DNA of 64,000 nucleotides from Octopus vulgaris (lineage: Eukaryota). The notes beneath the pieces were generated by a model that saw nothing but the letters and a program-made list of their open reading frames with translations, was not told the origin of the DNA and ran no database searches. A program made the position numbers and the translations under genes. The stretch spans positions 132,680,001-132,744,000 of the forward strand of contig OX597815.1 of assembly GCA_951406725.2 (NCBI GenBank), in the 5' to 3' direction. This document shows, one piece after another, positions 10,585 to 61,521 of the stretch; the stretch's first letter is position 1, and the number at the start of each line of letters is the position of its first letter.

Positions 10585-11010
<426 letters not shown>

Positions 11011-16510: not shown

Positions 16511-16919
16511 ATTGCCCACAGGAGGTTAAACATAGATAGGACAAACAAGGACATACAAAGGGATTAAGCCGATTACATCGACTCCAATGCGTAACCGGTT
16601 TTCATTTAATCGACCCCAAAAGGATGAAAGGTAAGGTCGATATCGGCGTAATTTGAACTCAGAACCTAACGGCAGACGAAATACCTATTTCTTTACTACC
16701 CACAAGAGGCTAAACACAGAGAGGACAAACAAGGACAGATAAATGGATTAAGTCGATTACATCAACCCCAGTGCGTAATTGGTACTTAATTTATCGACCC
16801 CGAAAGGATGAAAGGCGGAGTCGACCTCAGCGGAATTTGAACTCAGAACGTAGCGACAGACGAAATACAGCTACGCATTTCGCCCGGCGTGCTCACGTTT
16901 CTGCCAGCTCGCCGCCTTA
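16511..16919 (-). mobile_element. Dimeric SINE family 1
   Basis: Full monomer (16690-16919) joined to a second, headless body (16511-16689). Confidence 0.85.
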
Positions 16920-18520: not shown

Positions 18521-19316
18521 TATATAACTGGCTCTGAATTCTACACAAAACACAAAATCAATAGAGATAAACATAGAAGGACATAGTCAAGTAGAGAGAA
18601 ACTAACAGAAAGTGAACGCCAATGTGTCTTTTCTTAAATATTAAAGAAGGTCAAATTTCAGAAAATGATAAAATATTAAAAGGAAGCAGAAGGAAATAGT
18701 TTGAAAAATTAATATGAGAAGTATTAAGGTATAAAATAAAGAATTTGAAAGTGCATAATATTATAATAATTCTGCTTGTTCCTCCGTTACTTAGCCCGTC
18801 CGTAACACTTCCACGTTATTAGTTGAATGTGGCGGGGAAAGAGGACATGGGGCAGAGGAGAAAGTTGGAGGAGGGGGCAAAGAGGGCGGTTGAGGGGAGG
18901 GTGAGGGACAGGATGTGGTGGTGAGTGAAATATGTAATTTATTTTATTTTAACTAAGATGATTTTTTCCTCTGTTACTTAGCCCGTCTGTAACGCTTGCA
19001 TGTGATTAGATGAAGGGAAAGGTGAAGAGTGAAAGGAAAAGGAGAGAGAAAGAAGGAGAGTGGTGTGTATTAAGTATATAAAGTTGTGGATAAAGTATAT
19101 AATGTGTATAGATAAAGTGCATTAAGTAATCATCAATTCCAATTTCCTTCAACTTTTAATGATTAGCAGGCGAGCGACCATCTTTCAATACTGACACAAC
19201 ACAGGCTACGCTTTCAGGTTTTCCGGATAAAATTTTTAGAAATAATCCATTAACTTTACCATTAAGTCTGTGAAATATTCTTGAGTACCGCTAGTTTGTA
19301 ATATAGTGGTTGTTTA

Positions 19317-19760
19317 AAGGCGGCGAGCTGGCAGAAACGTTAGCATGCCAGGCGAAATGCTTAGCGGTATTTCGTCTGTCTTTACGTTCTGAGTTCAAAT
19401 TCTGCTGAGGTCGACTTCGCTTTCATCCTTTCGGGTGTTGATAAATTTAGTACCAGTTACGTACTGGGGTCGATCTAATCGATTGGCACCCCCACAAAAT
19501 TTCGGGCTTTGTGCCTAGAGTAGAAATGAATATAGCAGTTATTTAAAGGCGGCGAGCTGGCAGAAAAATTAGCAGGCCGGCCGAAAGCTTTGTGGTATTT
19601 CGTTTGTCTTTACGTTCTGAGTTCAAATTCCACCGAGGTCAACTTTGCCTTTCACCCTTTCGGGGTTCGATAAATTAAGTACCAATTGCGTACTGGGATC
19701 GATCTAATCGACTGGCTTCCTCTCCCAAAATTTCGAGCCTTGTGCCTAGAGTAGAAAAGA
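19317..19760 (+). mobile_element. Two tandem SINE family 1 copies
   Basis: 19317-19529 and 19546-19760, with three copies of a 16-bp target-like repeat. Confidence 0.9.
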
Positions 19761-19949
19761 ATAGCGGTTGTTTAAATGATATAGGTGACTGGTGGTTGTA
19801 ATGATTTAGTTCATTGGTGGTTGTAAGAATAACACATAAATTGATATTATGACAGCGTAGTTGTAACAGCACAGATCACTTGTTATATTGACACAGAACA
19901 GTTCGGTATTGGTTGTGCTAAAAGAACTAAAAAGTGTTTAAAATAATAG

Positions 19950-22491: not shown

Positions 22492-22552
<61 letters not shown>

Positions 22553-22557
<5 letters not shown>

Positions 22558-23150
22558 TTGCATTTATAAATGTCTCCGAGAGACTTATACAGTAGCAGTA
22601 TGATAAAGTGATGGTTTGTTGCCAACTTACTGTGGCAGTCCCAGGAAAGGGAAAAATGCTACTGCTATTTAGCCCCAACAAACACCGTACGATACATTTG
22701 AGTCACATAGCCAACTGGAAACGGTGTTCCCTGAGGCTAAATAGCAGAAGCATTCTTCCCTTTCCTGGGACTGTCATATTAAGTTGGCAGCAAACTATCA
22801 ACTTATCGCGCTGCTACTGTATAAGTCTCTCTGAGGGATTTAGAAATGCAATATTTCTAATTTTGTAGTGAATTTATTTCATTTGAAATTCTATGTTTTC
22901 AAATGTGAATAGGCATCGACAGCTAACAAGCCAAGCTACTCCAGACTGATGAAAAGCAATGACTTTGAAACTGATCCCTGGATGTTCGCTTTGCTATGTG
23001 AAGGTGCTTATTTCTCCTGTTTGAAAACATAAGGACACAGTATCCTTGTGTCACACAGCCAACTGGAAACGGTGTTTCTTGGGGCTAAATAGCAGTAGCA
23101 TTTTTTTCCTTTCCTGGGACTGCCATATTTAGCTGGTAACAAACCATCAC
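22553..23150 (+). mobile_element. Retrozyme-like element: 348-nt monomer x1.3 with a 5' inverted segment
   Basis: GTCACA.AGCCAACTGGAAACGGTG at 22702 and 23050; inverted arms 22553-22688 / 22721-22856; hammerhead at 22940-22982; (TA)n on both sides. Confidence 0.8.
22940..22982 (+). ncRNA. Hammerhead motif (slightly decayed)
   Basis: TCCAGA-CTGATGA-AAAGcaatgaCTTT-GAAACTGATC-CCTGGA. Confidence 0.65.
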
Positions 23151-23218
<68 letters not shown>

Positions 23219-29230: not shown

Positions 29231-29284
29231 ATATAGAAATATTAATATTTCTAAATCCCTCTCTCTCCCTCTCTCTCTCTATAT

Positions 29285-29417: not shown

Positions 29418-29618
29418 TCAAATTAGAAATATTACATTTCTAAATCTCTCAGAGAGATTTATACAGTAGTAGCACGATAAAGTGAAGATTTATTGCCAAC
29501 TTAATGTGCCAGTCCCAGGAAAGGGGAAAATGCTACTGCTAATTATGACACAAGCGTTCTGTGTCCTTATGTTTTCAAAGAAGGGAGATGGGCACCTCCA
29601 CCCAGCAAAGCCAGCATG

Positions 29619-29657
29619 CAGAGACTAGTTTCAGAGTCATTGTTCATCATCAGTCTG
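29619..29657 (-). ncRNA. Hammerhead motif
   Basis: Minus strand: CAGA-CTGATGA-TGAACAATGACTCT-GAA-ACTAGT-C-TCTG; canonical core, GUC site, palindromic stem III; stem II is weak in this copy. Confidence 0.72.
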
Positions 29658-29678
29658 GAGTAGCGTGACTTCCTAGCT

Positions 29679-31458
29679 TAATTCTTTATTATCGGCACAA
29701 GGCCTAATTATAGAGGGGACATACAAAGACATGCGGGAACATAAAACATATGAAGGATGATTCGCTCCCGCTGCGAGATGAAACCGTGTATTCCTTTAGT
29801 ATAACTATTACACAACGCCTAGCCTCGCTCCGAGGCGAAACTTCCCCTTTTCGCTTTCGCCCTATAATTACACCTTTAAACAAATGTTCAAACAGAATTT
29901 ACTTCTTATTTTTCCTTCTTTTTTTTTTAAACTAAAGTCAACCAAATGTATATCGCATTATTTTTTTAGAAACATTTTGGAAACCTATTCATTCGACACT
30001 TGCAAAATGACTTGATTTTCCTTTTTTTTTTCTTTTTTCAAATAAATATTTTCTGAGTTAAAGTCTTTTCAAAATGTATCGACTTACCTCTTGTCTCTCA
30101 CAATGTCTTTCATTCTTACACTCATTTACGTTGGGGTATCCTATCTCACTACGATTTTCCTTTTGTTTGTGTTTTGCCTATTGTCTCTTTTTGTTTCTAT
30201 TTTCCTGCTGCTTTGTGAGTTCTTGTATATTCGTCTCTAAGTCTGTGTGTTCGCGTTTTTGTGTGCCTTTGTGTTCGTTTGACTGTAACTCTACGTGTTT
30301 CGTCTGTGTGTCTATGTTTTTAGGCTTCATTACTTCTGAGTTGTCTTGTTTCTGGCCTGCATGACTCTGTCCTTTTAATTCCTTTGCTGGTACTTCCTCT
30401 GGTAAATTTTCTCCATTTCTCGTCGTGGGGTTGAGTTTCTTCTATTCCTTTACATTTCTTCACTTCCACTATCGTCGGTGACTTTCTTCTTTCTCTTTTC
30501 CGTGGTTTTACCTCCGCCAAATTGCCATCATATTCTGTTCTCTGCTTCTGCTTTTTCCCACCACTGTATCTCCCTGCACACTCTCTTCCACCATTTCTAC
30601 TGCTGATCTAGGGCATTTCCTTCTCAGGTGCCCTCTTTCACCGCATCCGTAACATTTTGGGGATCTCCCCTCCAACATTACTCCCAGTTTTTCACCGTTT
30701 GGTAATTCCACAGTATCCGCCATTTCCTCGTAATACTCTGGGCTTACCGCACAAATTACTTCAATTCCATATCCCCAGCAATTCAATTGTTGAGTTCTGC
30801 TTATTATTCAAATCTCCAGGTTTTCACTTCCATTCACCAGCTCTGAATTAAACATTGCGACTATTACTCATTCTTGGTATGTCGACGGTGGGATTCTTCC
30901 CGCCCTGAGCCTGACGATTCTTTTGCCTAAACAGTTCGGCATTAACGTCCATTTTTCTAGAATTATCAGCCTGTTGTCGTTTACTTTTGCCTCCTCTTCT
31001 GTTGCAAAGGTAACTATTACTGTCGTATATTCCCTTCCTCTTGTAAAGAAAGTTATCACTTCACCTATTTATTCCTTCAATATTTCCTCTATCTCTTCCT
31101 GCGGCGCGTGTTCTATTCTCCTATTTTCATTCGCAAATTTCTGAATATCACCGTCCTACTTTCCAATTTTCTTTTTTCCTCCATTAGCAGGGTCCTTTTT
31201 ATGTTTAATCCTTCTTTCTTTTACATGCAATAATGTTTTGAAAGCTTCTCCTCATCCCACTCCTTCCACTTCGGCTTCAGCACACGTGGGTCTATAGCAT
31301 CTCGACCTCCAGTTGCTTCAGCACACGTGGGTCTATAGCATCTCGACCACCAGTGACTTCCGCGTGACATTTCATTTCCATTATTCACTTCCACCCAACG
31401 ATGGACAGAAATCTCGCACAAAAATCTCGCTTCGAATTTTCCACAAAACAACAAAAAG
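29679..31458 (-). mobile_element. ORF1/gag-only non-LTR-like element (decayed)
   Basis: Fragmented ORF with the CCHC knuckle CYGCGERGHLRRKC (30508-30786), AATAAA at the 3' end, degenerate TSD, no RT; 41-bp tandem duplication at 31274-31355. Confidence 0.75.
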
Positions 31459-31896
31459 GTGAGGCTTGGTAGCTGTCGATGCTTATTCAACTTAGAAAAC
31501 ATATAGATTTCAAGTGAAATACATTCACTGATCTGCAAAATTAGAAATATTACATTTCTAAATCCCTCAGAGAGATTCATTCAGTAGCAAACCATCACAT
31601 TATCGTGCTGTGTGTGAGTATATGTTTCCGATATACATATATGTTTTGTTTGCGTGTGTTGAGTTCGTACGTGTGTCTGTGCGAGCATAAGTGATCCATC
31701 ATATAATACACTGAATGGCATTATACTTTGTGTCACAATACCATTACACCAATGATTACTTAACCATTTAAAACTATGGATCGGAGGAATAAATCATCAC
31801 GTGACAGTACCAGAAATTTTGCGTCACGTGAGTCGGCCACTAAAATTTTCTTAAAGACAACTCATTTTCAGTAGAAAGCTAATATAATGTTGATTA

Positions 31897-32124
31897 ATTA
31901 CATCATTTACATTATTTACATTTGATGGATATTTATCCTCATCATTGTTGTTAACAAAACGTTTCGGCTGATATACCCTCCAGCCTTCATCAGGTGTCTT
32001 GGGAAAATTTCGAACTTGGGTTCTCATTCCTAAGGTATTTTTCGATGTTTCGGGCATATGGCGTAGTGGTAAAGAGCGCGGCCTACTAACACCAAGATTT
32101 CGAATTCGATTCCAGGCAGTGACC

Positions 32125-42908: not shown

Positions 42909-45003
42909 TATTTCATTAAATTAGCCATAAAGGCCTTACACAGAGAAAAATGAAGCTGCGGGCCGGACAAAGACATTAATGAGATGAGATGAATGATGAA
43001 CAGGATGGTATTAATTGGGGAAGGCAAAGGACGCGCCACCGATCACTGCTTCCTCAATCCATTGTTTTTTTTTCCTTTTTACAAAGCAAAAATCACAGAA
43101 ACGAGGTAATTAGCCTCTCATCTTAGTTCCATAATATTGCACAAACTAAAGCACTGAGCCTCTTACCAACAAAGAATACTTTACAAAAAGGAGGCATTAC
43201 GTCACTTACTTTGTAAAACAGAATAAGGTTTCAAACCCCTCATCAATTCATTACACTGAGTCTTTTCAACTTCTTATTCATATTCCTCCCCAGCATCGCT
43301 TGTGACCACATATTCCGCCATCACCCATGCCTGATTCAAACACAAAGCGGGTGATTGTCGGCGGCGTCTAGCCAAAAGCGATATTCCTCATTGAACCCCT
43401 CCAGCCAACGCAACACGCGCAACGTTTTGACCTCCACAGCTATCTGCAGATGCCATTCGGGATCCCGTGTGCATGTTAAAGTTACTCCCTTATGGTGCTA
43501 TTTCAGCACCTTCTACAACTGTCCGCCTCTGTAGAAGAAGACCAATAATTCATCTTTTTCCGGGGACAAGATAGTCACTTCTCAACTGAGAGAGGGTACG
43601 TCTCCTCTGTGACTGGGAGATTCGCCTGCCCTCCCTCATCCCTAGCACCCATTTTACTCACCTTCTTCCTCTGGCGGCCCTTTTGTGAGGAGTCTTCCGC
43701 CTCCTCGGCTGCCTTCGTTCCCTCTTTTACAGAGGTCTCAACCAACTGCTCCAGGACCTTACTTTGTTCCTAGAGACCGTTTCTCTTTATATGGCCAGGC
43801 TCCAGGCACCGATGAAACCTGGGGAGGGCACCCTCAAGAATCACCGAATACCTATAACCGACCATTTAAAAAAATCTGGAAATACCAGATTCTTGGCTGA
43901 TTGGATCCACAGAGTCAAAACCGCTTTTGATCCTATCCAATCAGCCGCAGGCAAAATTTTCACAATGAGGAGCTTGGCTCCGCTGCCACCCAGACCCCGG
44001 CGGATAGTCTCATCTATCCACTCGGGTTCTATCCCGGTTGGCAACCCGCAAACGTAAGCTCTCGTCAACTTCTTCCCGCAATACGTGGGAAGAAACAAAA
44101 TTTTATTGCCCTCCAGAGGCTGGCTCGCAAAAATGCGAGCCTTTTCCTGAGTGTCAAATAGCAACCAAAGGGTTACATATCTGACACCCCGTGCAATAAA
44201 TTTTACGTTTGATAAATGTTCTTTTAATTCTTTTTCAATTATTTCTTGGGAGAACACGACGATGGCGTCGCGAATCTTCGAATATGTTCTCAACACCACC
44301 ATCTTCTCCTTTTGCTGTGTAATCCATTCCTTGCGTGGGGCAATCTCCCACTCCAAGATATTTCCTTTCGCCATGCTTTTTTTAAAAACGTCCCCACAAC
44401 AGTTCAAAGTAAAAACGGAAGGCAAAAACATAAATAAAAACAAAAAAAAAACAGTCAGAAAGAAGACAAGGGAAAAAACAAAACAGAAAGGACAGGAAAA
44501 ACTGAAAAAAAAAACCAATTTAGCACGACTGCAGTTCTTCAGGTTATGCAAGTTCAAATCACAGCTCGTTTTACAAAATTGTTTTCGGCCAACCGGTACT
44601 GCAGGCCCTTGTATTTCCAAAAGGTACTCCAATAGAGTCAGGAACACGGTAGCAGTAAAGAATATTTTACCATGAAATGGTAACTGCACAAGAAGAAAAA
44701 AAATTTTCCACAAGAGAAAAAAATTCCACAATTTATGGCGCAGAGGATCCGCTCACCAAAACAATTCACTTAAAAGTGAACAAATTTTGCCCAACTGTAG
44801 GCAGACCAGAGTTCAGAATCCAGTGAGGACTTCTTATTTGTACAAAAAATAATTACAGTAATCCCCACTGGACCCCCCCCCAAAAAAGTCTTACCTTACA
44901 GCTGAGCTTCTGTTTTAATCAATATTTCGCCAGCTGCACACCAGCATGGCTACTTCTTTCAGTGCTACGAACAACACTGACAATACGCATGCGCGGTAGC
45001 ATA
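42909..45003 (-). mobile_element. ORF1/gag-only non-LTR-like element with a perfect 16-bp TSD
   Basis: TSD GGGAAGCAAGCTTCTT at 42893-42908 and 45004-45019; 2095 bp; ORF1-like protein; AATAAA at the 3' junction; no RT. Confidence 0.85.
43770..44374 (-). pseudogene. gag/ORF1-like protein, frameshifted before a decayed zinc knuckle
   Basis: MAKGNILEWE...QEIIEKELKE...FIARGVRYVT...LPTYCGKK..., then in another frame ILEGALPRFHRCLEPGHIKRNG; aligns by eye with the 30508-31130 protein. Confidence 0.7.
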
Positions 45004-45835: not shown

Positions 45836-47087
45836 GCCTTTAGTCGAACAAGTCGACCTCTGGACTTATTCTTTGTACGCTTTGCATTTATTATATCGGT
45901 TTCTTTTGCCGAACCGCTAAGTTACTGGAACATAAACACACCAACATCGGCTTTAAAGCGATAGCAGGAGGACAAACATATAGACACAAATACACACATA
46001 TATTTTTTAATGGAAGTCTGTCGGGTTCGACAATGACGTCAGTGACGCCGGAGGTGGGAGCGGAACCCAAAGGCGAACGCGCAGACATGGCTGCATGTTG
46101 GGCACATAAAAGCAGAAGTAGGGTTGGAGATCCTCTCTTTTCGGGCTTGTGGTTTCTGATCCAGGCTCTTGAGGCGCTCTTCTTCGAACAGCCTAACACC
46201 CTTTTGGACAGCTGGACGCCAGGCGCCGCAGTCAGAGGCAAGCGATTCCCAGTCACGCCGCAAGCCTCAATGGAAGTTTTCAGGCTGTCCTTGTATCGCC
46301 TCAGTAGCCTTCCAGGTTTTCTTGCTCCAGAAGCCAGCTCAGAGAAGATCATCTTTGGTAGACGCGCGTCGTCTATTCGGACTACATGCCCGACCCACAG
46401 GAGCTAGGCCTTCATGATGTGGGCTTCGATCCCGGGCATTTCAGCTCTGCGAAGCACCTCAATGTTAGAGACTCTGTTCTCGCAGGAAATTCCCATGGTT
46501 TGTCGCAAGCAGCGGACGTGGAACTGGTCAAGTACTCGTATTTGCCTCCTATACAGCATCCACGTCCCACAGTCGTATAGCAGAGAGGTGATGACAACTG
46601 CCCTATAGACTGCAAGCTTGGTGGAAAGTCTGATGCCTCGTTCGGCCCACACACGTGTCCGAAGGCTTTTGCTGCTTCTGCGAGACAAGTGGCAAGTTCT
46701 TGCAGGTTTGGTTCATTCAATGCTGCACGCGCAATATCGTCTGCAAACAGGAAGTCTCATACTAGGGCGTCCAGGACTTTGGTTTTTGCTTTCAGACGTC
46801 TGAGGTCAAAGAATCGGTGTCACATATGTAGCGAATAGTGACACCAACAGCAGATTCTTGACAAGGCGTGGAAGAGCATGGTGAAAAACATGAGGTTGAA
46901 GAGTGGGGGAGCCATATATATATACACGACAGGATTCTTTCAGTTTCTGTGTACCAAATCCATACACAAGGCTTTGGTCGGCCCGAAGCTATAGTAGAGG
47001 ACACTTACACAAGGTGCCACGTAGTGGGACCGGACCCGGAACCATGTGGCTGCTAAGCAAGCTACTTACCACACAGCCACGCCTGCG
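45835..47087 (-). mobile_element. SINE family 2 split at its (TA)n linker by an RTE fragment
   Basis: Tail 45835-45995 and head 46925-47087. Confidence 0.8.
46005..46910 (-). mobile_element. RTE-clade LINE 3' fragment (pseudogenised)
   Basis: LRTRVWAERGIRLSTKLAVYRAVVITSLLY...WVGHVVR...RYKDSLK...CPTCSHVC...SHLRRH (C-terminal C2H2 finger). Confidence 0.92.
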
Positions 47088-48421: not shown

Positions 48422-48467
<46 letters not shown>

Positions 48468-48469
48468 CT

Positions 48470-48830
48470 AACAGATTAAAGTTCTTGTCCAGCAATTCCA
48501 AAATCAGAAATTCCATTTACCAGTGTAAAAATTCTTCCGGTACCGGTGTCTTCTTCTACATTGGGGCTACTACTTCTAAATTATCCCAGAGGATTTCCAA
48601 TCATTATTCAACTTTCCGAGATAAGAGAAAACAACAAAGCACAGGACTAAGTAAACTAGTTTGGCGTCTTAAGGACAGCAATATAACTTTCAAGCTGGAA
48701 GGGTCCATATTGTCTGTATCCTTTCCGTATGATAAGGGCAGAAAATTTTGTGGCGTAAATACAATAGTTGAAAAATTCTATAGGTGCATGCACTGGCAGA
48801 AACACACCTTTCACTCATATTAATGATGAT
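48470..48830 (+). pseudogene. Penelope-like GIY-YIG endonuclease remnant
   Basis: NSIYQC...FYIGATTSKLSQRISNHYSTFR...STGLSKLVWRLKD...ILS...PY...KFC; begins right after (TA)n. Confidence 0.85.
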
Positions 48831-49673
48831 TAATATAGATAACCTCCTTGAATTTAATAATTTGGTTCCACTTGTACAACACCACCATAGACACATTTTT
48901 TATACTCATGAAGGACTACTACCAAATTCGGGGTATGTTTTACCTTTGTCTCTCTACCTCTCCCTCCTCTCTCTCTCTCTCCCTCTCTATATCGTAAGCA
49001 CAATCAAACACACAGACACAAACCTGTCACTTCACTACTAGTTGTTTTGGCATCTACCCAACCACACACACAATCACGCACACATATACACACACATAGA
49101 CACGAATGCAGTTATATACATACACACACATAGGCACTCAATCTCATTAGCAAAGACAAAAAACAACACATCACCATTCATATGACTTGCACTCTGTCAC
49201 CTTCCTATTCTTAGATCTCTCCTCTTCCAACCTTGTTTGAACTCTTGAACTTTCTAGAATCTTCTACATTCAACCATTTTTGACGTCACTGCTTATAACG
49301 GAATATTTTAAAGAGACACTCATTATCGCTATGGACTCCGTGTGGGCAGTCATCTAAAAGTTTTTGTTCATCATGATGCTGACTTAAGTTCCTTGTCTTT
49401 CCTGATGAGAAGGCGGCATATTGCACGCCTTATTCCTTCGAAATTAGGAATATGCAGTCTTCGAAACATATGTCGAGAATAAAGGAATTTTGTTAAATCG
49501 TCGTTCAACTCCATTCTTTTATTTATTTGTATTAAAAAAACACACGAATTTCCACACGGAAGCACATGATCTCTGCCCTTGGCATGTAGCTTCAACCGTG
49601 TTTTTCTGACGTGAATTTGCTACCCGGGTATCGGTTAACCGAATTATCCATACTAGGATAATTCATTCAACTA

Positions 49674-52465: not shown

Positions 52466-54345
52466 TAGAACTTAGATAAAACTTAGAAATGTTTCGACCA
52501 AAGATTGGTCCAGGTCATGTCTAACTTAATAGCACCGCCTGATAGGATTATCTAAATCCTGTTTAAGTCAAGTTTTGTTTATGGTCCATTTAAATAGTGA
52601 GTTCTTGTTGAGTGAGTTGTATCCAGGTATGGGTGGCTTATCCGGTATTCCTTGAAGGAATCTGTCCAGACTCCGTTTAAAGGTGATGGGATCCTTTTCC
52701 TCTTTGAACTGTTTCGAGACAATGTTAAACAGGGCAGGGCATGTTGAGGAAAATAAATTATGTCGCAGTGTACCTATATGTTGTGATCCTGAATTGGGCA
52801 GGGGACGTATAGCCTGTCGTCCCAGCCTTGGATGAACCTTGAAACTAATGTTCAGGTCGGTTGGGCAATGCTAGCGGTATATTCTCCACAGCGTACAAAT
52901 GATGTACCGCTTGCGGCGGCGCTGGAGAGAATAGAGTTTCACGGCTTTAAGGCGGTCCCAATAATCGAGATCAGTCATGCCTTCATTTCGTTTAGTGAGT
53001 GTGCTCTGGGGTGATTCAATACTCGAGATGTTTTGTTTTGTATGGGGAGACCATAAGGGGCAGTACAAAGGGGGAGAAAAGTGGAATGATTTCACCTTTT
53101 CTCTGGACCAAAAGGTTCTTAAGATCCAGGAGCTCATCCTATGAGCTATATCGATCTTATTGAGATTGTTATGTACAATTACACCCAGGTCTCTGATACT
53201 ATTAGATGCCGTGAGCGGTTCACCTGAAGGAAGAAAATATGGTTGTTTTAGTATAGACTTCCAAAATACATCAGATCAAATTTTCCCTCGTTCAGTTGCA
53301 TTTTGCTTTAGTCTGCCCATTGACTCACAGTTGAGTTCGGTCTTCTTCATTGATGATTTGCTGGAGCATAGTGTCATCAGCAAATATTTTCTCTTTGCAG
53401 TGATTTACGACGCTGGAAAGGTCATTTATGTAAATTATAAAGAGGAGCGGGCCCAAGACATTCCCTTGAGGGACACCACAGGGGACTTTTGCTGGGCTTG
53501 AGTGGACTCCATCGACCACAACATGTTGCGTTCTAGTCACCAGGAAATATTTAATCCAGTGTAGAAGTTTTCCACAGATTCCAACATTTGCCAATTTTGA
53601 GAGTAGGATATTATGGTCAACCCTGTCGAACGCTTTACTGAAGTCAAGTTATATGACATCAGAGTTCGAACCTGTTCCCAAGGCTTTAAGTATATATTCG
53701 ATGTTGTGTAAGAGCTGTGTTAGACAGTCCCTTCCACAGCGAAAGCCATGCTGATTTGCATTTAGGAGATTGTGGGTCTCCAGGAAGTCAGCTATCCTTG
53801 ATCTTACCACTCTTTCAAACACATTAATGATGTGGGAGGTGAGTGAGACTGGACGAAATTTGAATGCGAGAGATCTTGTTTCCCTGTTTGAAAACCGGGG
53901 AGACAGACTGTTGTAGGAGCTGTTTCGGTATATAACCTGAGTCTAAAGAATTTCTCCAGAGGTTGGTCAGAGGGACTGCAAGTTTGTGTCTATATTCCTT
54001 CAGGAGACTAGCGGGGAATTTATCAGGCCCTACAGCAGAATAGTATTTGACCTCACTTATTGCTGCTATGATGTCAGAGGCAGTGAAGGTTATGTCCGAG
54101 ATTTTATGTTGGGAATCAACTTCGTTCGCTTCTCTTACGTCAATATCAGTGGGCTCACTAAAAACAGAGCAGTATTGTTTCTGCAGTATTTCTGCCATTT
54201 CTTTAGCATCGTGTTGGGGAATGCCGTTATCATCGATCAATGGCCCAATGGGTGATACAGCGGTTCTATGCTTATTTGCATAACAATAGAATACTTTCGT
54301 GTTCTGTTTGATATTTTGATTACCCACTGTTCCTCCGCAGCTCTT
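52462..54345 (-). mobile_element. CR1-like LINE, 5'-truncated, RT domain decayed
   Basis: AVGPDKFP...PVFKQG, DFSKAFDRVDH, GVPQGNVLGPLLFIIYINDL, FADDT, YWDRLKAVKLYSLQRRR; tail TTCTAAGTT repeats abutting (TA)n. Confidence 0.92.
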
Positions 54346-54352
54346 TATTATC

Positions 54353-54411
<59 letters not shown>

Positions 54412-54476
54412 CATCATCATCATCATCATTATTATCATTATCATCATCATCATCATCGTCATTATTATCATTATTA

Positions 54477-54537
<61 letters not shown>

Positions 54538-54588
54538 CATCATCATCATCATCATCATTATTATCATCATCATCATCATCATCATCAA

Positions 54589-54760
54589 TAAGGCGTTGAG
54601 AATCTTTTCCACTCCGGGCAAAATGCCTGTCTTTATATTCTGACTTCAAATTCCGCTGAGGTCGTTTTGCTTTTCCTCATTTCGGGGTTGATAAAAATAG
54701 GTATCATGAAATCGGGTAACCCCTACTCCGCATTTGCTGCCCTTGTGAAAAGCATGAAAC
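54589..54760 (+). mobile_element. SINE family 1, decayed
   Basis: TTCTGACTTCAAATTCCGCTGAGGTCG...TTTCGGGGTTGATAAA. Confidence 0.65.
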
Positions 54761-55942: not shown

Positions 55943-56885
55943 CATCACTTCAGTATAGAGCGGAAATGATAAAATGACAAAAGAGAGAAGTAAAGAAAAT
56001 GGAAGGCAAAACCAGAAAAATATTGATAGTACACGGAGCTTTCCACCCTAAGAGTGACACCGATAGGCTGTACTTGTCCAGAAGAAAGAATGGGAGAGGT
56101 TTGATCAGTTCCCAGAGGAAAATTGCTTAAGTGGGTATATAAAAATGCCATAGAGCCACAGTTGGAAGACACGAAGAAGGCCGGCGTCATCAAAACTGAA
56201 AATTGTGCAGCGAGAGAAAAATTTAAACATGAAATGAACAAAAAAAGTGAAAGGATGAAGGGAAAAATGTACGGTCAGTTTGCAAAAGTTGTGAACCGGA
56301 AGACAAATAGAGAGGACCGGTGGCTATGGATGATGAGGAGTGACCTGAAGATAGAGACAGAAGCACTCATATGACCAACTATATGAAGTGCGGAATAGAC
56401 AACACTACCGATAGCAACAAATGGAGAATGTGTGGTAAGAGGAGTGAAACGGTATGGCACATCGTTAGTGAATGACCGAAATTGGCACTAGGCAAATAGA
56501 AAAGACGCCATGACAATGTGCCAAGAATGATCCATTGGAAGATTTGTGGAAATCACGGCCTACAAAGAGCCAAGACGTGGTATGAGAAAAACTACAAAAG
56601 GAGTCACTGAGAATAGGAATTGCAAAATCTTGTGGAATGCAATGATCCAGTACGATCACCTGACCAAACATAGGGAATGGGACATTGTTGCAGTGAATAA
56701 AAAAAGCGAGAACATGTATGATAATCTTTATAGCATACCCCGGTGACGACAGGATCAATGTGAAAGAAGAAAAAGTAGACAACTATGACGACTTAAAGTG
56801 GGAACTACGAAGGTTGTGGTCAATGAAGGGAGTGGACGTGATACCAATAATAATTGGTGCATGTGGAAGTATCAGCACTTTGAGT
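55942..56885 (+). mobile_element. R4/Dong-like LINE 3' fragment between (AAT)n runs
   Basis: HPKSDTDRLYLSRRKNGRGL, KRRHDNV, KILWNAMIQYDH...DIV, PGDDRINVKEEKVDNYDDLKWELRRLW...VIPIIIGACG. Confidence 0.85.
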
Positions 56886-56889
56886 TTTC

Positions 56890-56989
<100 letters not shown>

Positions 56990-57249
56990 TACACACATAT
57001 ATATATACATATGTAACACAAATGATAAATATTGTAATACCATACAGCCAGACGGATGATATAACAAACAAGGAATCTTCTCCGGTGGCTATGGATGATG
57101 AGGAGTGACCTGAAGATAGAGACAGAAGCAATGTCCCGTTCCCTATGTCTGGTCAGGTGATCGTACTGGATCATTGCATTCCACAAGATTTTGCAATTCA
57201 TATTCTCAGGGACTCCTTTTGTAGTTTTCTCATACCACGTCTTGGCTCT

Positions 57250-59139
57250 ACTTGTTGAGGAGAAATTACAACTTAAGAGAACAAAAAGTGGTGGAGCAAA
57301 AGAACCACGGGGGAAACGACGCATTGAAAGGGACATAATGCAGGCTAGGCAAGATCTAGCAAAAATTGAGCAATGATTAAGAGGAAACTGGGAAAATGGG
57401 AAAAAGACCGACCGAGACAAATTAGGGAAATACGAAAAAACGGGTTTGATGCTGCAATAGAGCAATTAAAACAGAGAATCATGGCAAAAAGCCAGAAAAT
57501 CAGATTTGTGAACAGAAATAAGCAGTTCGCGGAGGACAGAGTGTTCAAAAGTAACCCGAAGAAATTCTTCCCAACGTTAGAAGGAGACAGTGGGGATAAA
57601 TGTTGCTCCTAAGCCAAGGAGTTATGAAGCGAATTATGGGGAAAGAGTGTGGTGCATAAAAGAGATGCAATGTGGGTAGGAACTATCAAGATAAAATTAC
57701 AAGGAGGAAAGAAACAAAGGAATATTGTCATAAGCACGGTTGATGTGAAAGAACAAGTGGGTAAAATGCCTAACTGGAAAGCCCCTGGACTAGAAGGAAT
57801 TCATGGCTTCTGGCTGAAGAGATACCACGCAGTGCATGAAAGACTAGCAGCCCAATTGAATGAATGTGTCAGAAAGCTACAGTCCCAGCGTGAATGGTGA
57901 CTGGGGGGACAACACTTGCAATGAAAAATAGATGAAAAGGGAATACTGTGGGAAACGACCGTCCCATAGCATGACTAAACATAATCTGGAAGATACTCAC
58001 TGGAATATGTGCGGCAAAGACATAGACTTTATTGGCACAGAAAGTAATACTACCAAGGGCACAAAAAGGATGTAGGAAGAGTTCTCAGCGTACCAAAGGA
58101 CATCTGGTCATCGATAAAAAAGTTTTGAGGCATTGTAAACAAGCGTCATACAGACATGTCTAGGGCTTGGATTGATTTTAAGAAGGCATATGATATGATG
58201 CCACATTCTTGGATCATTGAATGCCTGCAGATGTTTGGTGTTGTTGACAACATAAATACATAAATTTTCTGATGCATTGCATGAAAGAGTAGAAAACCAG
58301 AGTATTTGATAAATAGTGAAAAAGACCTGCAGCATTATGCCGCCAAAGATATGGGTGAAAATACAGATGACTTGATGGGTAAGGCAGAGTTTATCCAAAG
58401 AGCTGAGGAGAAGAGAAAAGAAGACCTTGAGATAAGGAATATACAGGACGTTAAGGATAATACAGCATCAAGGGAATGGCATGAGCGAGGTAATTTGAAG
58501 CGTACCACCGAAACCTGATCATTGCTGCACAAGACTAGATTCTCGCTATCAATTCAGTGAAGTATAACATCTATAAAACTTTTGACACCCAGAAAAGCAG
58601 ACTATGTGGAAAGAGTGTGGAAAATATGACCCACTTGGTAAGTGGATGTGAGAGCCTTGCTCAAAAAGAATACATGCGCCCCCACGATAAAATGTGTGTG
58701 CATTTTCATTGGCGTTTATGCCGTAAATACCAATATGAAGTAACAGAGAACTGCTATGAGCATGTACCAAGTAAAGTTATGCAGTAGCATGGAAAAGTAA
58801 CGATACTCTGAGATTATGATTTTCAGACGGATCGTGTAATCGAACGCCGTCGGACGGATATTGTCATATTGAATAAGAGAAACAAATAATGTCAGATTAT
58901 TGATGTAGCCATACCAAATGACATGAATGTTGCGAGTAAAGAGGTTGCAAAATGGAAATGGCAAGACTGTATGGAATGCGAGAAGGTAATGTAAAAGTGA
59001 TACCAGTGGTGTTCGGAACACTGGGTTTAACCCAATTGAAACTTCAAAACTTCTTAAGGCAACTGGAAATCCTATGCAAGATTGATGTCTTGCAAAAAGC
59101 AGCCTTATTGGGTACAGCGCACATCTTAAGGAAAGTATG

Positions 59140-60112: not shown

Positions 60113-60767
60113 ATTGTTTTACTTCTCAGTGTACTCGATCTTGTTTGTTCTGGTAGATTCTGTGAGAGCGGACAGTAACCTGCCATCAGAGGTCTCAGAG
60201 GGTCTCTTTCTGGACATCATAAGCTTTGCTACTTGATTGTTAATTATTGTGAGAGACATTCAACATCCAATTACCAATCTCAAAATCCTAGCTGTCCTCA
60301 GAAGCAGTTTTTGGAGCCTACTCTGCTCGTACCATATCAATTCCAATTTCTCTGACATATTTTGCGAACTTGGTTGTTAGTACTCCGAGTGCCCCTACAA
60401 CTAGTGGAATGACACTTTTCTCATAGTCCACATTCTTGCGATTTCGTCTTTTAATAGTCTGTATTTTTCAATCTTTTCTAGTCCTTTGTCACTTATGAGT
60501 GCATCTCCAAGTATTAGAATATCTATAATCTTGGCTTCCATTTTCCCTTTATTTACCACAACAATATCTGGTCTCCGATCTTCGATTAGGGAGTCACATT
60601 GGATTATAAAATCCCACAGTATCTTACATTTCTCGTTTTCGGTGACTCCTTCTGATTCATGATCATATCGTTTTTGTGCCCTGTTCAGGCCGTACTTTTC
60701 ACAAAGCCTCCAATGTTTGAATTTAGCCACGTTATCGTGTCTCCTTTTGTAGTGCTTTTGGGCCGGC

Positions 60768-60768
<1 letters not shown>
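60113..60768 (-). mobile_element. R4/Dong-like LINE 3' fragment with 3' UTR, between (AAT)n runs
   Basis: HWRLCEKYGL...KILWDFIIQCDSLIEDRRPDIVVV...IIDI...EKIEKY (PD-D/ExK nuclease). Confidence 0.9.
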
Positions 60769-60814
<46 letters not shown>

Positions 60815-60815
60815 T

Positions 60816-61030
60816 AAGGCTGCGAGCCGGCAGAATCGTTAACACGCCATGGGAAATGCTTATCGGTATTTCGTCTGCAGCTACGTTCTGAGTTCAAATT
60901 CCGTCAAGGTCGACCTTGCTTTTCATCGTTTCGAGGTCGATAAATTAAGTACCAGTGAAGCACTGAGGTCGATGTAATCGATTAGCCCCCTCCCCCAAAA
61001 TTTCAGGCCTTGTGCCTATAGTAGAAAGGA
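60816..61030 (+). mobile_element. SINE family 1
   Basis: Full head, body and tail. Confidence 0.9.
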
Positions 61031-61124: not shown

Positions 61125-61521
61125 AGGCGGCGAGCTGGCAGAAACGTTAGCACGCCGGGCGAAATGCTTTGCGGTATTTCGTCTGCCGCTACGTTCTGAG
61201 TTCAAATTCCATCAAGGTCGACTTTGCCTTTCATCCTTTCGGGGTCGATAAATTAAGTACCAGTTACGCACAGGGGTCGATGTAATCGACTTAATCCGTT
61301 TGTCTGTCCTTGCTTGTCCCCTCTATGTTTAGCCCCTTGTGGGTAATAAAGAAACAGGTATTTCATCTGTCTTTACGTTCTGAGTTCAAATTTTGCCGAG
61401 GTCGACTTTGCCTTTCATCCTTTCGGGGTCGATAAATTACGTATCATTTGTGTACTGGGGTTGTTCTAATGGACTGGCGCCCTCCCCCAAAATTTCCGGC
61501 CTTCTGCCTACAGTAGAAAAA
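61125..61521 (+). mobile_element. Dimeric SINE family 1 with a 16-bp TSD
   Basis: AATATGTTCTGGCTCA (61109-61124) / AATACGTTCTGACTCA (61522-61537) flank the whole dimer. Confidence 0.9.

Follow-up and report, generated by a model that had tools for sequence, protein, structure and literature searches.

Two copies of a non-coding repeat with a unit of ~350 nt lie in a 64-kb stretch of the Octopus vulgaris genome (the window, i.e. all the DNA analysed here). We consider it probable that they belong to a non-autonomous retrozyme with a type I hammerhead, written into TA-rich microsatellites by an RT-endonuclease that it would borrow from a Penelope-like element (PLE). An original prediction had placed the repeat among hammerhead-bearing retrozymes and named a PLE as the likely enzyme; the length and non-coding nature of the unit, the type I hammerhead and insertion ends of PLE type all agree with this assignment.

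Architecture of the two copies

Copy 1 has a period of 348 nt. Positions 22698-22800 match 23046-23149 at 85.6% over 104 nt (E 3e-28, BLAST against the window), in agreement with the period first read from 22702 and 23050. The GC content of the 348-nt unit is 39%. In the wider family the unit is ~353 nt long, copy 1 being without 5 nt (gap at 22866) that copy 2 and other copies have, and a shorter hairpin loop near 23040 is a variant among the family contigs. BLAST of copy 1 against the window picked up the internal repeat and an inverted arm, and aligned copy 1 with copy 2 in three pieces at 80-86% (E 2e-30 to 2e-37).

Both copies share one layout, a partial head-to-tail tandem (direct arm) with an adjoining inverted, truncated arm. 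In copy 1, which is flanked by (TA)n at 22492-22552 and 23153-23170, the direct arm (22698-23154, plus strand) comprises 1.31 units of 348 nt and the inverted arm spans 22550-22700 on the minus strand. The inverted match proper pairs 22550-22688 with 22721-22859 (85% complementary over 139 nt); the arm probably extends to 22700, thereby overlapping the direct arm by 3 nt. The direct arm of copy 2 runs on the minus strand in three parts: 31463-31589 (unit 22812-22932; 85% over 127 nt, E 2e-35), 29546-29678 (unit 22921-23053; 80% over 133 nt, E 2e-30) and 29419-29545 (unit 22738-22863), the last part lying behind a ~32-nt deletion. Its inverted arm is short (31586-31610 on the plus strand, starting at 31586 or 31588; unit ~22788-22813), and the copy totals ~1.15 units. 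A third piece of the unit, 28 nt long (29234-29261, minus strand; unit 22833-22859; E 0.003 and 2e-5), sits in the (TA)n tract of copy 2 and may not be independent of it. The copies had been described beforehand as 1.3 monomers with one hammerhead and an inverted 5' segment, and as a minus-strand copy longer than one unit with a small deletion and an inversion of its own; both descriptions are borne out.

Each copy contains more than one unit of the same loop: copy 2 passes the point at which copy 1 stops and continues as the first unit of copy 1. Per arm the window copies reach 1.15-1.31 units, 1.31 units being the longest stretch, and each copy carries one hammerhead, where Li et al. ask for two before they call a retrozyme active. 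The copies are 8-19% diverged from each other. Segments mismatch alike within and between copies (6-11 in ~65 nt; 4-9 in 48 nt), and because the mismatches within one copy equal those between copies, both insertions are old. Old and damaged as they are, the window copies make poor bench material.

The first two parts of the direct arm of copy 2 are separated by a later insert of 1.78 kb (29679-31462, minus strand), a decayed LINE-like element with a zinc-knuckle frame (PF00098, E 2e-4); 12 nt of the unit (22921-32) are duplicated on both sides of it. The zinc-knuckle frame is broken and matches proteins of O. vulgaris (75%) and O. bimaculoides (90%), and an RT was not seen in the insert. A 41-nt tandem lies near its start (31274-31354), and its 3' end is like two other repeats of the window (10642-10690 and 61305-61353). 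By its sequence the insert is possibly a non-autonomous LINE derivative. The zinc knuckle, the 12-nt duplication of its own and its absence from copy 1 exclude it as the coding body of the repeat.

Other repeats of the window include two-copy tandems with periods of 184 and 229 nt (16515-16868 and 19300-19763), which are probably SINE pairs. Broken frames resembling LINE-type reverse transcriptase/endonuclease, as judged by eye, occur at 45891-46756, 52568-54645, 56697-57900 and 60401-60838. A stop-free frame of 303 codons at 43841-44752 (minus strand), with no Pfam match at E 0.1, may be the first frame of another retroelement.

The outer ends lie at two fixed sites

When the arms are aligned to the unit, the outer (3') ends of all five fall into two clusters (copy-1 coordinates), at 22803-22813 (short site) and, ~55 nt further, at 22856-22864 (long site). 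Each insertion has one arm at either site, with the roles swapped between the copies. The direct arm of copy 1 ends at 22803-06 and its inverted arm at 22856-59, and in copy 2 the direct arm ends at 22863-64 and the inverted arm at 22813, 8-10 nt off the main short end of the family; for the third piece the end is at 22859. Variation is confined to the inner (5') ends, giving inverted arms of ~150 nt in copy 1 and 23 nt in copy 2, and where two arms meet they have 2-4 bases in common. The direct arm of copy 2 stops within 2 nt of the point at which its inverted arm was primed. For ends spread uniformly over a 348-nt circle the chance of such clustering is 0.00055 (five ends) or 0.0095 (four ends), in a test that was set up post hoc and counts a third piece that is possibly not independent.

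TA repeats lie beyond four of the five ends and continue the last letters of the unit; a GT repeat lies beyond the fifth. The setting in (TA)n that had been noted for copy 1 holds there; at 31611 the outer flank of copy 2 is GT-rich. The window as a whole is rich in microsatellites.

The ~55 nt between the two sites (22803-22864, plus strand), which we call the tail, are predicted to form two small hairpins, with the long site at the foot of the second, and the short site is preceded by an AC-rich run. Compared with shuffled sequences, the tail region folds with z -2.9 in copy 2, -2.6 in the inverted arm of copy 1 and -1.7 in the first unit of copy 1.

These ends are of a kind described for PLEs. 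Craig et al. (10.1101/2021.04.23.441226) report PLEs with a partial tandem, an adjacent inverted truncated copy and a tail of 30-40 nt at one end. For an anole PLE studied in vitro, Frangieh et al. (PMC11167929) describe the tail as the stretch between two internal RT starts; both target strands were cut and extended, the targets were AT-rich and synthesis began in an AC-rich stem-loop. Two end sites ~55 nt apart match this picture. A PLE enzyme thus produces fixed internal starts. The fixed outer ends therefore strengthen the PLE step, and permutation can no longer be used to argue for a circle. We take the two sites as likely marks of copying by a PLE enzyme from circular or multi-unit RNA. 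The original prediction had envisaged a circular or multimeric RNA, copied by a PLE RT from arbitrary points. The read-through junction and the PLE-type ends speak for the first part of this proposal; free circular permutation must be given up, given that all five outer ends lie at two sites and only inner ends vary. Fixed termini had been regarded in advance as evidence against a retrozyme, yet such internal starts are what a PLE enzyme produces according to the work on the anole element.

A type I hammerhead in a long predicted stem

The hammerhead core pattern occurs 13 times in the window, twice within the two copies, and our assignment of the motif combines this pattern scan with folding. 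The type I hammerhead of copy 1 (22940-22982, plus strand; core 22946-52 and 22967-70) has a predicted cut after 22976 and is broken at one pair of helix III and at the first pair of helix I, i.e. next to the cut site. In copy 2 (29617-29659, minus strand) helix III is intact, helix II contains two mispairs and helix I a single one; the GUC triplet expected on this strand was located and ends at 29623, after which the cut is predicted. Rfam gave no match in the window at the gathering threshold, and at E up to 10 it gave 16 matches near one copy and 6 near the other, none of them a hammerhead, the best being a generic hairpin on the inverted arms. Metagenome contigs (two scans) and viral contigs (one scan) contained no locus with an exact hammerhead pattern.

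Letters from the wider family repair the motif. Among the letters listed, the depth-weighted majority at 22954, 22965, 22973, 22974 and 22977 in all four sequencing runs restores helices I-III together with the GUC. The letter at 22953 is mostly a pyrimidine (depth-weighted), which leaves a mismatch at the base of helix II. The resulting family hammerhead has a helix I of 6 bp, a helix II of 3 bp plus the pyrimidine mismatch and a helix III of 2 bp with a palindromic loop. PMC4209133 defines the minimal hammerhead by a long helix II, a short helix I and no helix III, features that the motif of the unit does not show. By these definitions the family sequence reads as the canonical type of retrozymes, unlike the minimal type of coding PLEs. 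Across the two copies, 19 of 24 cells of the named structure are paired, with one compensatory change; with two sequences only, 227 of 500 shuffles scored as high for covariation.

A long stem is predicted that carries the hammerhead at its tip (22892-23031, plus strand; -49.8 kcal/mol, z -4.0, none of 200 shuffles as stable, folded as 22880-23055). Folded as a circle, the unit is 64-68% paired, with z -2.3 and -3.1 for the sense strand; the opposite strand gives z -1.3. The hammerhead is a predicted self-cutting RNA motif. RNA of the family is predicted to cut itself to unit length and would likely close into a circle.

Hammerhead-core patterns occur elsewhere in the window as well. One of different sequence at 31993 (minus strand) adjoins a (TAA)n tract and, inferred from its shape, is probably the end of a second PLE family.

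Coding potential and PLE remnants

That the unit holds no ORF, as had been noted at the outset, agrees with a tblastn search against 150 PLE-type endonuclease proteins, which gave no match (best E 0.01). A single frame with RT and GIY-YIG endonuclease, as in an autonomous EN+ PLE, is absent from the unit. Just before the hammerhead the translation of copy 1 contains SEFIS and, further on, RH; ten codons after RH comes a stop on the hammerhead core. This reading recalls the end motif of the PLE endonuclease in 47 of the 150 proteins. In a profile score over ~128,000 sites this frame relic ranked 33 (first half), 1138 (second half) and 1411 (whole), which is not significant, and the same segment pairs within the long predicted stem. 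Among the contig ends listed, 10 contigs of run X7 have other sequence before 22935, which can be read as a similar protein end (agreement 0.54) and may, from its sequence, be the end of a PLE-type protein.

PLE remnants are present in the same 64-kb window. The remnant of a PLE endonuclease frame at 48464-48820 (plus strand; Pfam GIY-YIG, E 7e-4) is 89% identical over 79 residues to an Octopus sinensis protein, and ~580 nt downstream of it, at 49402 (plus strand), lies a hammerhead-core pattern with a long helix II. When longer relatives of this GIY-YIG frame were sought, not one of 143 candidates scored, whereas a profile-library search gave 765 matches.

The repeat in other Octopus contigs

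The family was surveyed with 22700-23047 as reference, at 80% likeness, in the contigs of four among 24 listed runs; 20 of the 24 contain part of the repeat. Three DNA runs (three studies, two species labels) gave 1220, 907 and 1024 family contigs. Run X22, which is RNA by guess only and is not counted as expression, gave 93, in which the head-to-tail join and the short end are present; none of the runs carrying the repeat, among the 24 listed, is recorded as RNA. The family tables list 25 of 506 rows of loose ends, 40 of 99 of letters, 15 of 35 joints and 32 of 3365 pieces. The repeat is an abundant, old, non-coding octopus family.

Among the loose ends listed, the sequence before 22702 is the far end of the unit in at least 19, 21 and 20 contigs of the DNA runs and in 4 of X22, which makes the head-to-tail join general in the family. 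Behind 22800, again among the loose ends listed, come 4 further letters of the unit and then microsatellite in at least 19, 16, 18 and (X22) 2 contigs, with low agreement and a median of 151-224 unlike letters; the short end is therefore general too. Behind 22868 unit sequence goes on (at least 9 and 8 contigs among the loose ends listed), and records 16 and 26 bridge this point, so that the unit without an ORF is not peculiar to the window. Several of the pieces listed stop at 22863-67, where depth, a figure that does not equal copy number, drops (in X1 from 76,726 to 7,638). The long end is clear in the window only, as the 5-nt deletion of copy 1 at 22866 confounds contig ends there. Among the pieces listed no contig spans one whole unit, and arrays would not be visible in such contigs.

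At 22765 all window segments carry a letter that is the depth minority in all four runs, which suggests that a younger, more abundant subfamily exists elsewhere in the genome. The markers 22744 and 22765 do not separate the arms of copy 1. In the inverted arm of copy 1, 12 nt (22689-22700, minus strand) are identical to a variant join in one X1 contig and unlike both direct units, a hint in the sequence that the two arms may have come from different template variants.

Discussion

The probable history of the two copies can be set out as follows. A borrowed PLE RT-endonuclease would cut both target strands, as inferred from work on PLEs. Each DNA end would prime at a site of its own, long or short, the two sites lying 175 and ~230 nt downstream of the hammerhead cut; synthesis would then cross the cut site and continue for more than a full unit before stopping at variable points. 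The two cDNA arms would then be joined head to head over their 2-4 shared bases. Since then the ribozymes of both copies have been damaged and the LINE-like insertion has split copy 2.

Both direct arms extend across the hammerhead cut and contain more than one unit, which means that the template was either circular or an uncut multimer. The intact family ribozyme and the circles of the coral, mussel and axolotl retrozymes (PMC7229834) favour the circle; the use of unprocessed RNA in vitro and the stop of the copy 2 direct arm at the priming point of its inverted arm favour the linear multimer. On balance we lean, by a little, to the circle.

The alternative that deserves most attention regards the repeat as a miniature PLE, in which an internal deletion took out nearly the whole frame of a coding PLE and fused its two ends, and which was copied from uncut linear read-through RNA of partial tandems; the hammerhead would be inherited and no circle involved. 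Unprocessed RNA was indeed the main substrate of the anole PLE in vitro, which did not need hammerhead cleavage (PMC11167929), and in Xenopus retrozymes are placed as sisters of PLE terminal repeats (bioRxiv 10.64898/2026.07.22.740005). The SEFIS/RH relic upstream of the hammerhead and the other sequence of the X7 contigs before 22935 would fit such a deletion, and the coincidence of stop and priming point in copy 2 would fit twin priming on one linear RNA. The relic, however, is weak by rank and brought no tblastn hit, its segment also pairs within the long predicted stem, and the family majority has an intact, canonical hammerhead, unlike the minimal PLE type. We therefore hold this explanation to be unlikely, if well worth keeping in mind. 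Because an origin from a deleted PLE and the use of a circle are compatible, it differs from the retrozyme that we prefer only in the template.

Far less probable is that the copies are 5'-truncated ends (pseudo-LTRs) of a coding PLE, with the 348-nt period an accident of partial tandem formation. Their ends and inverted arms are as in coding PLEs, and the 10 X7 contigs, among the ends listed, possibly have coding-type sequence upstream; against this, going upstream from the hammerhead both copies re-enter the tail after 85 nt and not a reading frame, as do other copies among the rows listed, and there is no coding match. For the two window copies this reading is largely refuted. We give hardly any credence to a DNA-level repeat (MITE, fold-back element or satellite), whose arms would be terminal inverted repeats and whose hammerhead-like motif would be due to chance. 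Inverted sequence in (TA)n at both ends of copy 1 and the Rfam search without a hammerhead could be so explained. The arms, though, are of unlike length and end point in the two copies, their inner ends show the variation of 5' truncation, and all helices and the cut triplet are restored by the majority letters of the family; a MITE in particular is ruled out by the differing arms and the restored hammerhead. With type I topology and no LTR pair, the repeat also stands apart from LTR retrozymes, whose long terminal repeats carry type III hammerheads.

Of the systems we compared, Poseidon PAc of Anolis, as described in PMC11167929, is alike in its partial tandem, inverted truncated arm, tail at one end, AT-rich target, AC-rich start and hammerhead upstream of two RT starts. 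Unlike it, the octopus repeat has no RT-endonuclease frame, its hammerhead is canonical, its tail measures ~55 nt as against 30-40 nt, and its end sites lie 175-230 nt after the cut, compared with RT starts at an estimated ~85-125 nt. The metazoan non-LTR retrozymes of coral, mussel and axolotl, for which Cervera and de la Peña (PMC7229834) showed circles, share with it a non-coding unit of 150-450 nt, a GC content below 45%, a canonical type I hammerhead, a head-to-tail join and a predicted self-paired circle; HHR_Amex2, as described there, resembles the octopus motif in the mismatch at the base of helix II. The octopus family, known here from DNA, differs from them in one hammerhead per copy, two-armed insertions and two fixed ends.

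In the main text of PMC7229834, which mentions no octopus or cephalopods, PLEs are named only as strong candidates for mobilization. Li, Clavereau and Pollet (bioRxiv 10.64898/2026.07.22.740005) regard retrozymes as non-autonomous PLE derivatives and report many monomer-sized relics; in the available text of the preprint the evidence is co-occurrence and trees in 31 vertebrates, 3 insects and 1 coral, with no mollusc, and tandem growth is attributed to local amplification. The link between retrozymes and PLEs is thus already in print, drawn there from distribution and trees and here from insertion ends. In the literature searched, mostly open-access main texts, we found neither an octopus retrozyme, although the family could already be named in repeat libraries, nor insertion ends used as evidence for PLE copying of retrozymes, a point on which the model figure S9 of PMC7229834 may bear.

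How animal retrozymes enter genomes is an open question in this literature, with PLEs as candidates. Insertion ends that reproduce the two measured RT starts of a PLE provide a more direct, mechanistic link, and the two end sites supply RNA sites for the existing in vitro assay. We can also imagine, as a rather improbable extension, that a PLE has here been reduced to its two ends and has become a circular self-cutting RNA parasite; a dimeric PLE enzyme would start from each broken DNA end, at the two fixed sites, and go round the circle beyond the ribozyme cut, at times with a separate RNA as template for either arm. If this were true, both the birth of a retrozyme from a PLE and circle-templated, two-ended insertion would be readable from the genome and could be rebuilt in vitro.
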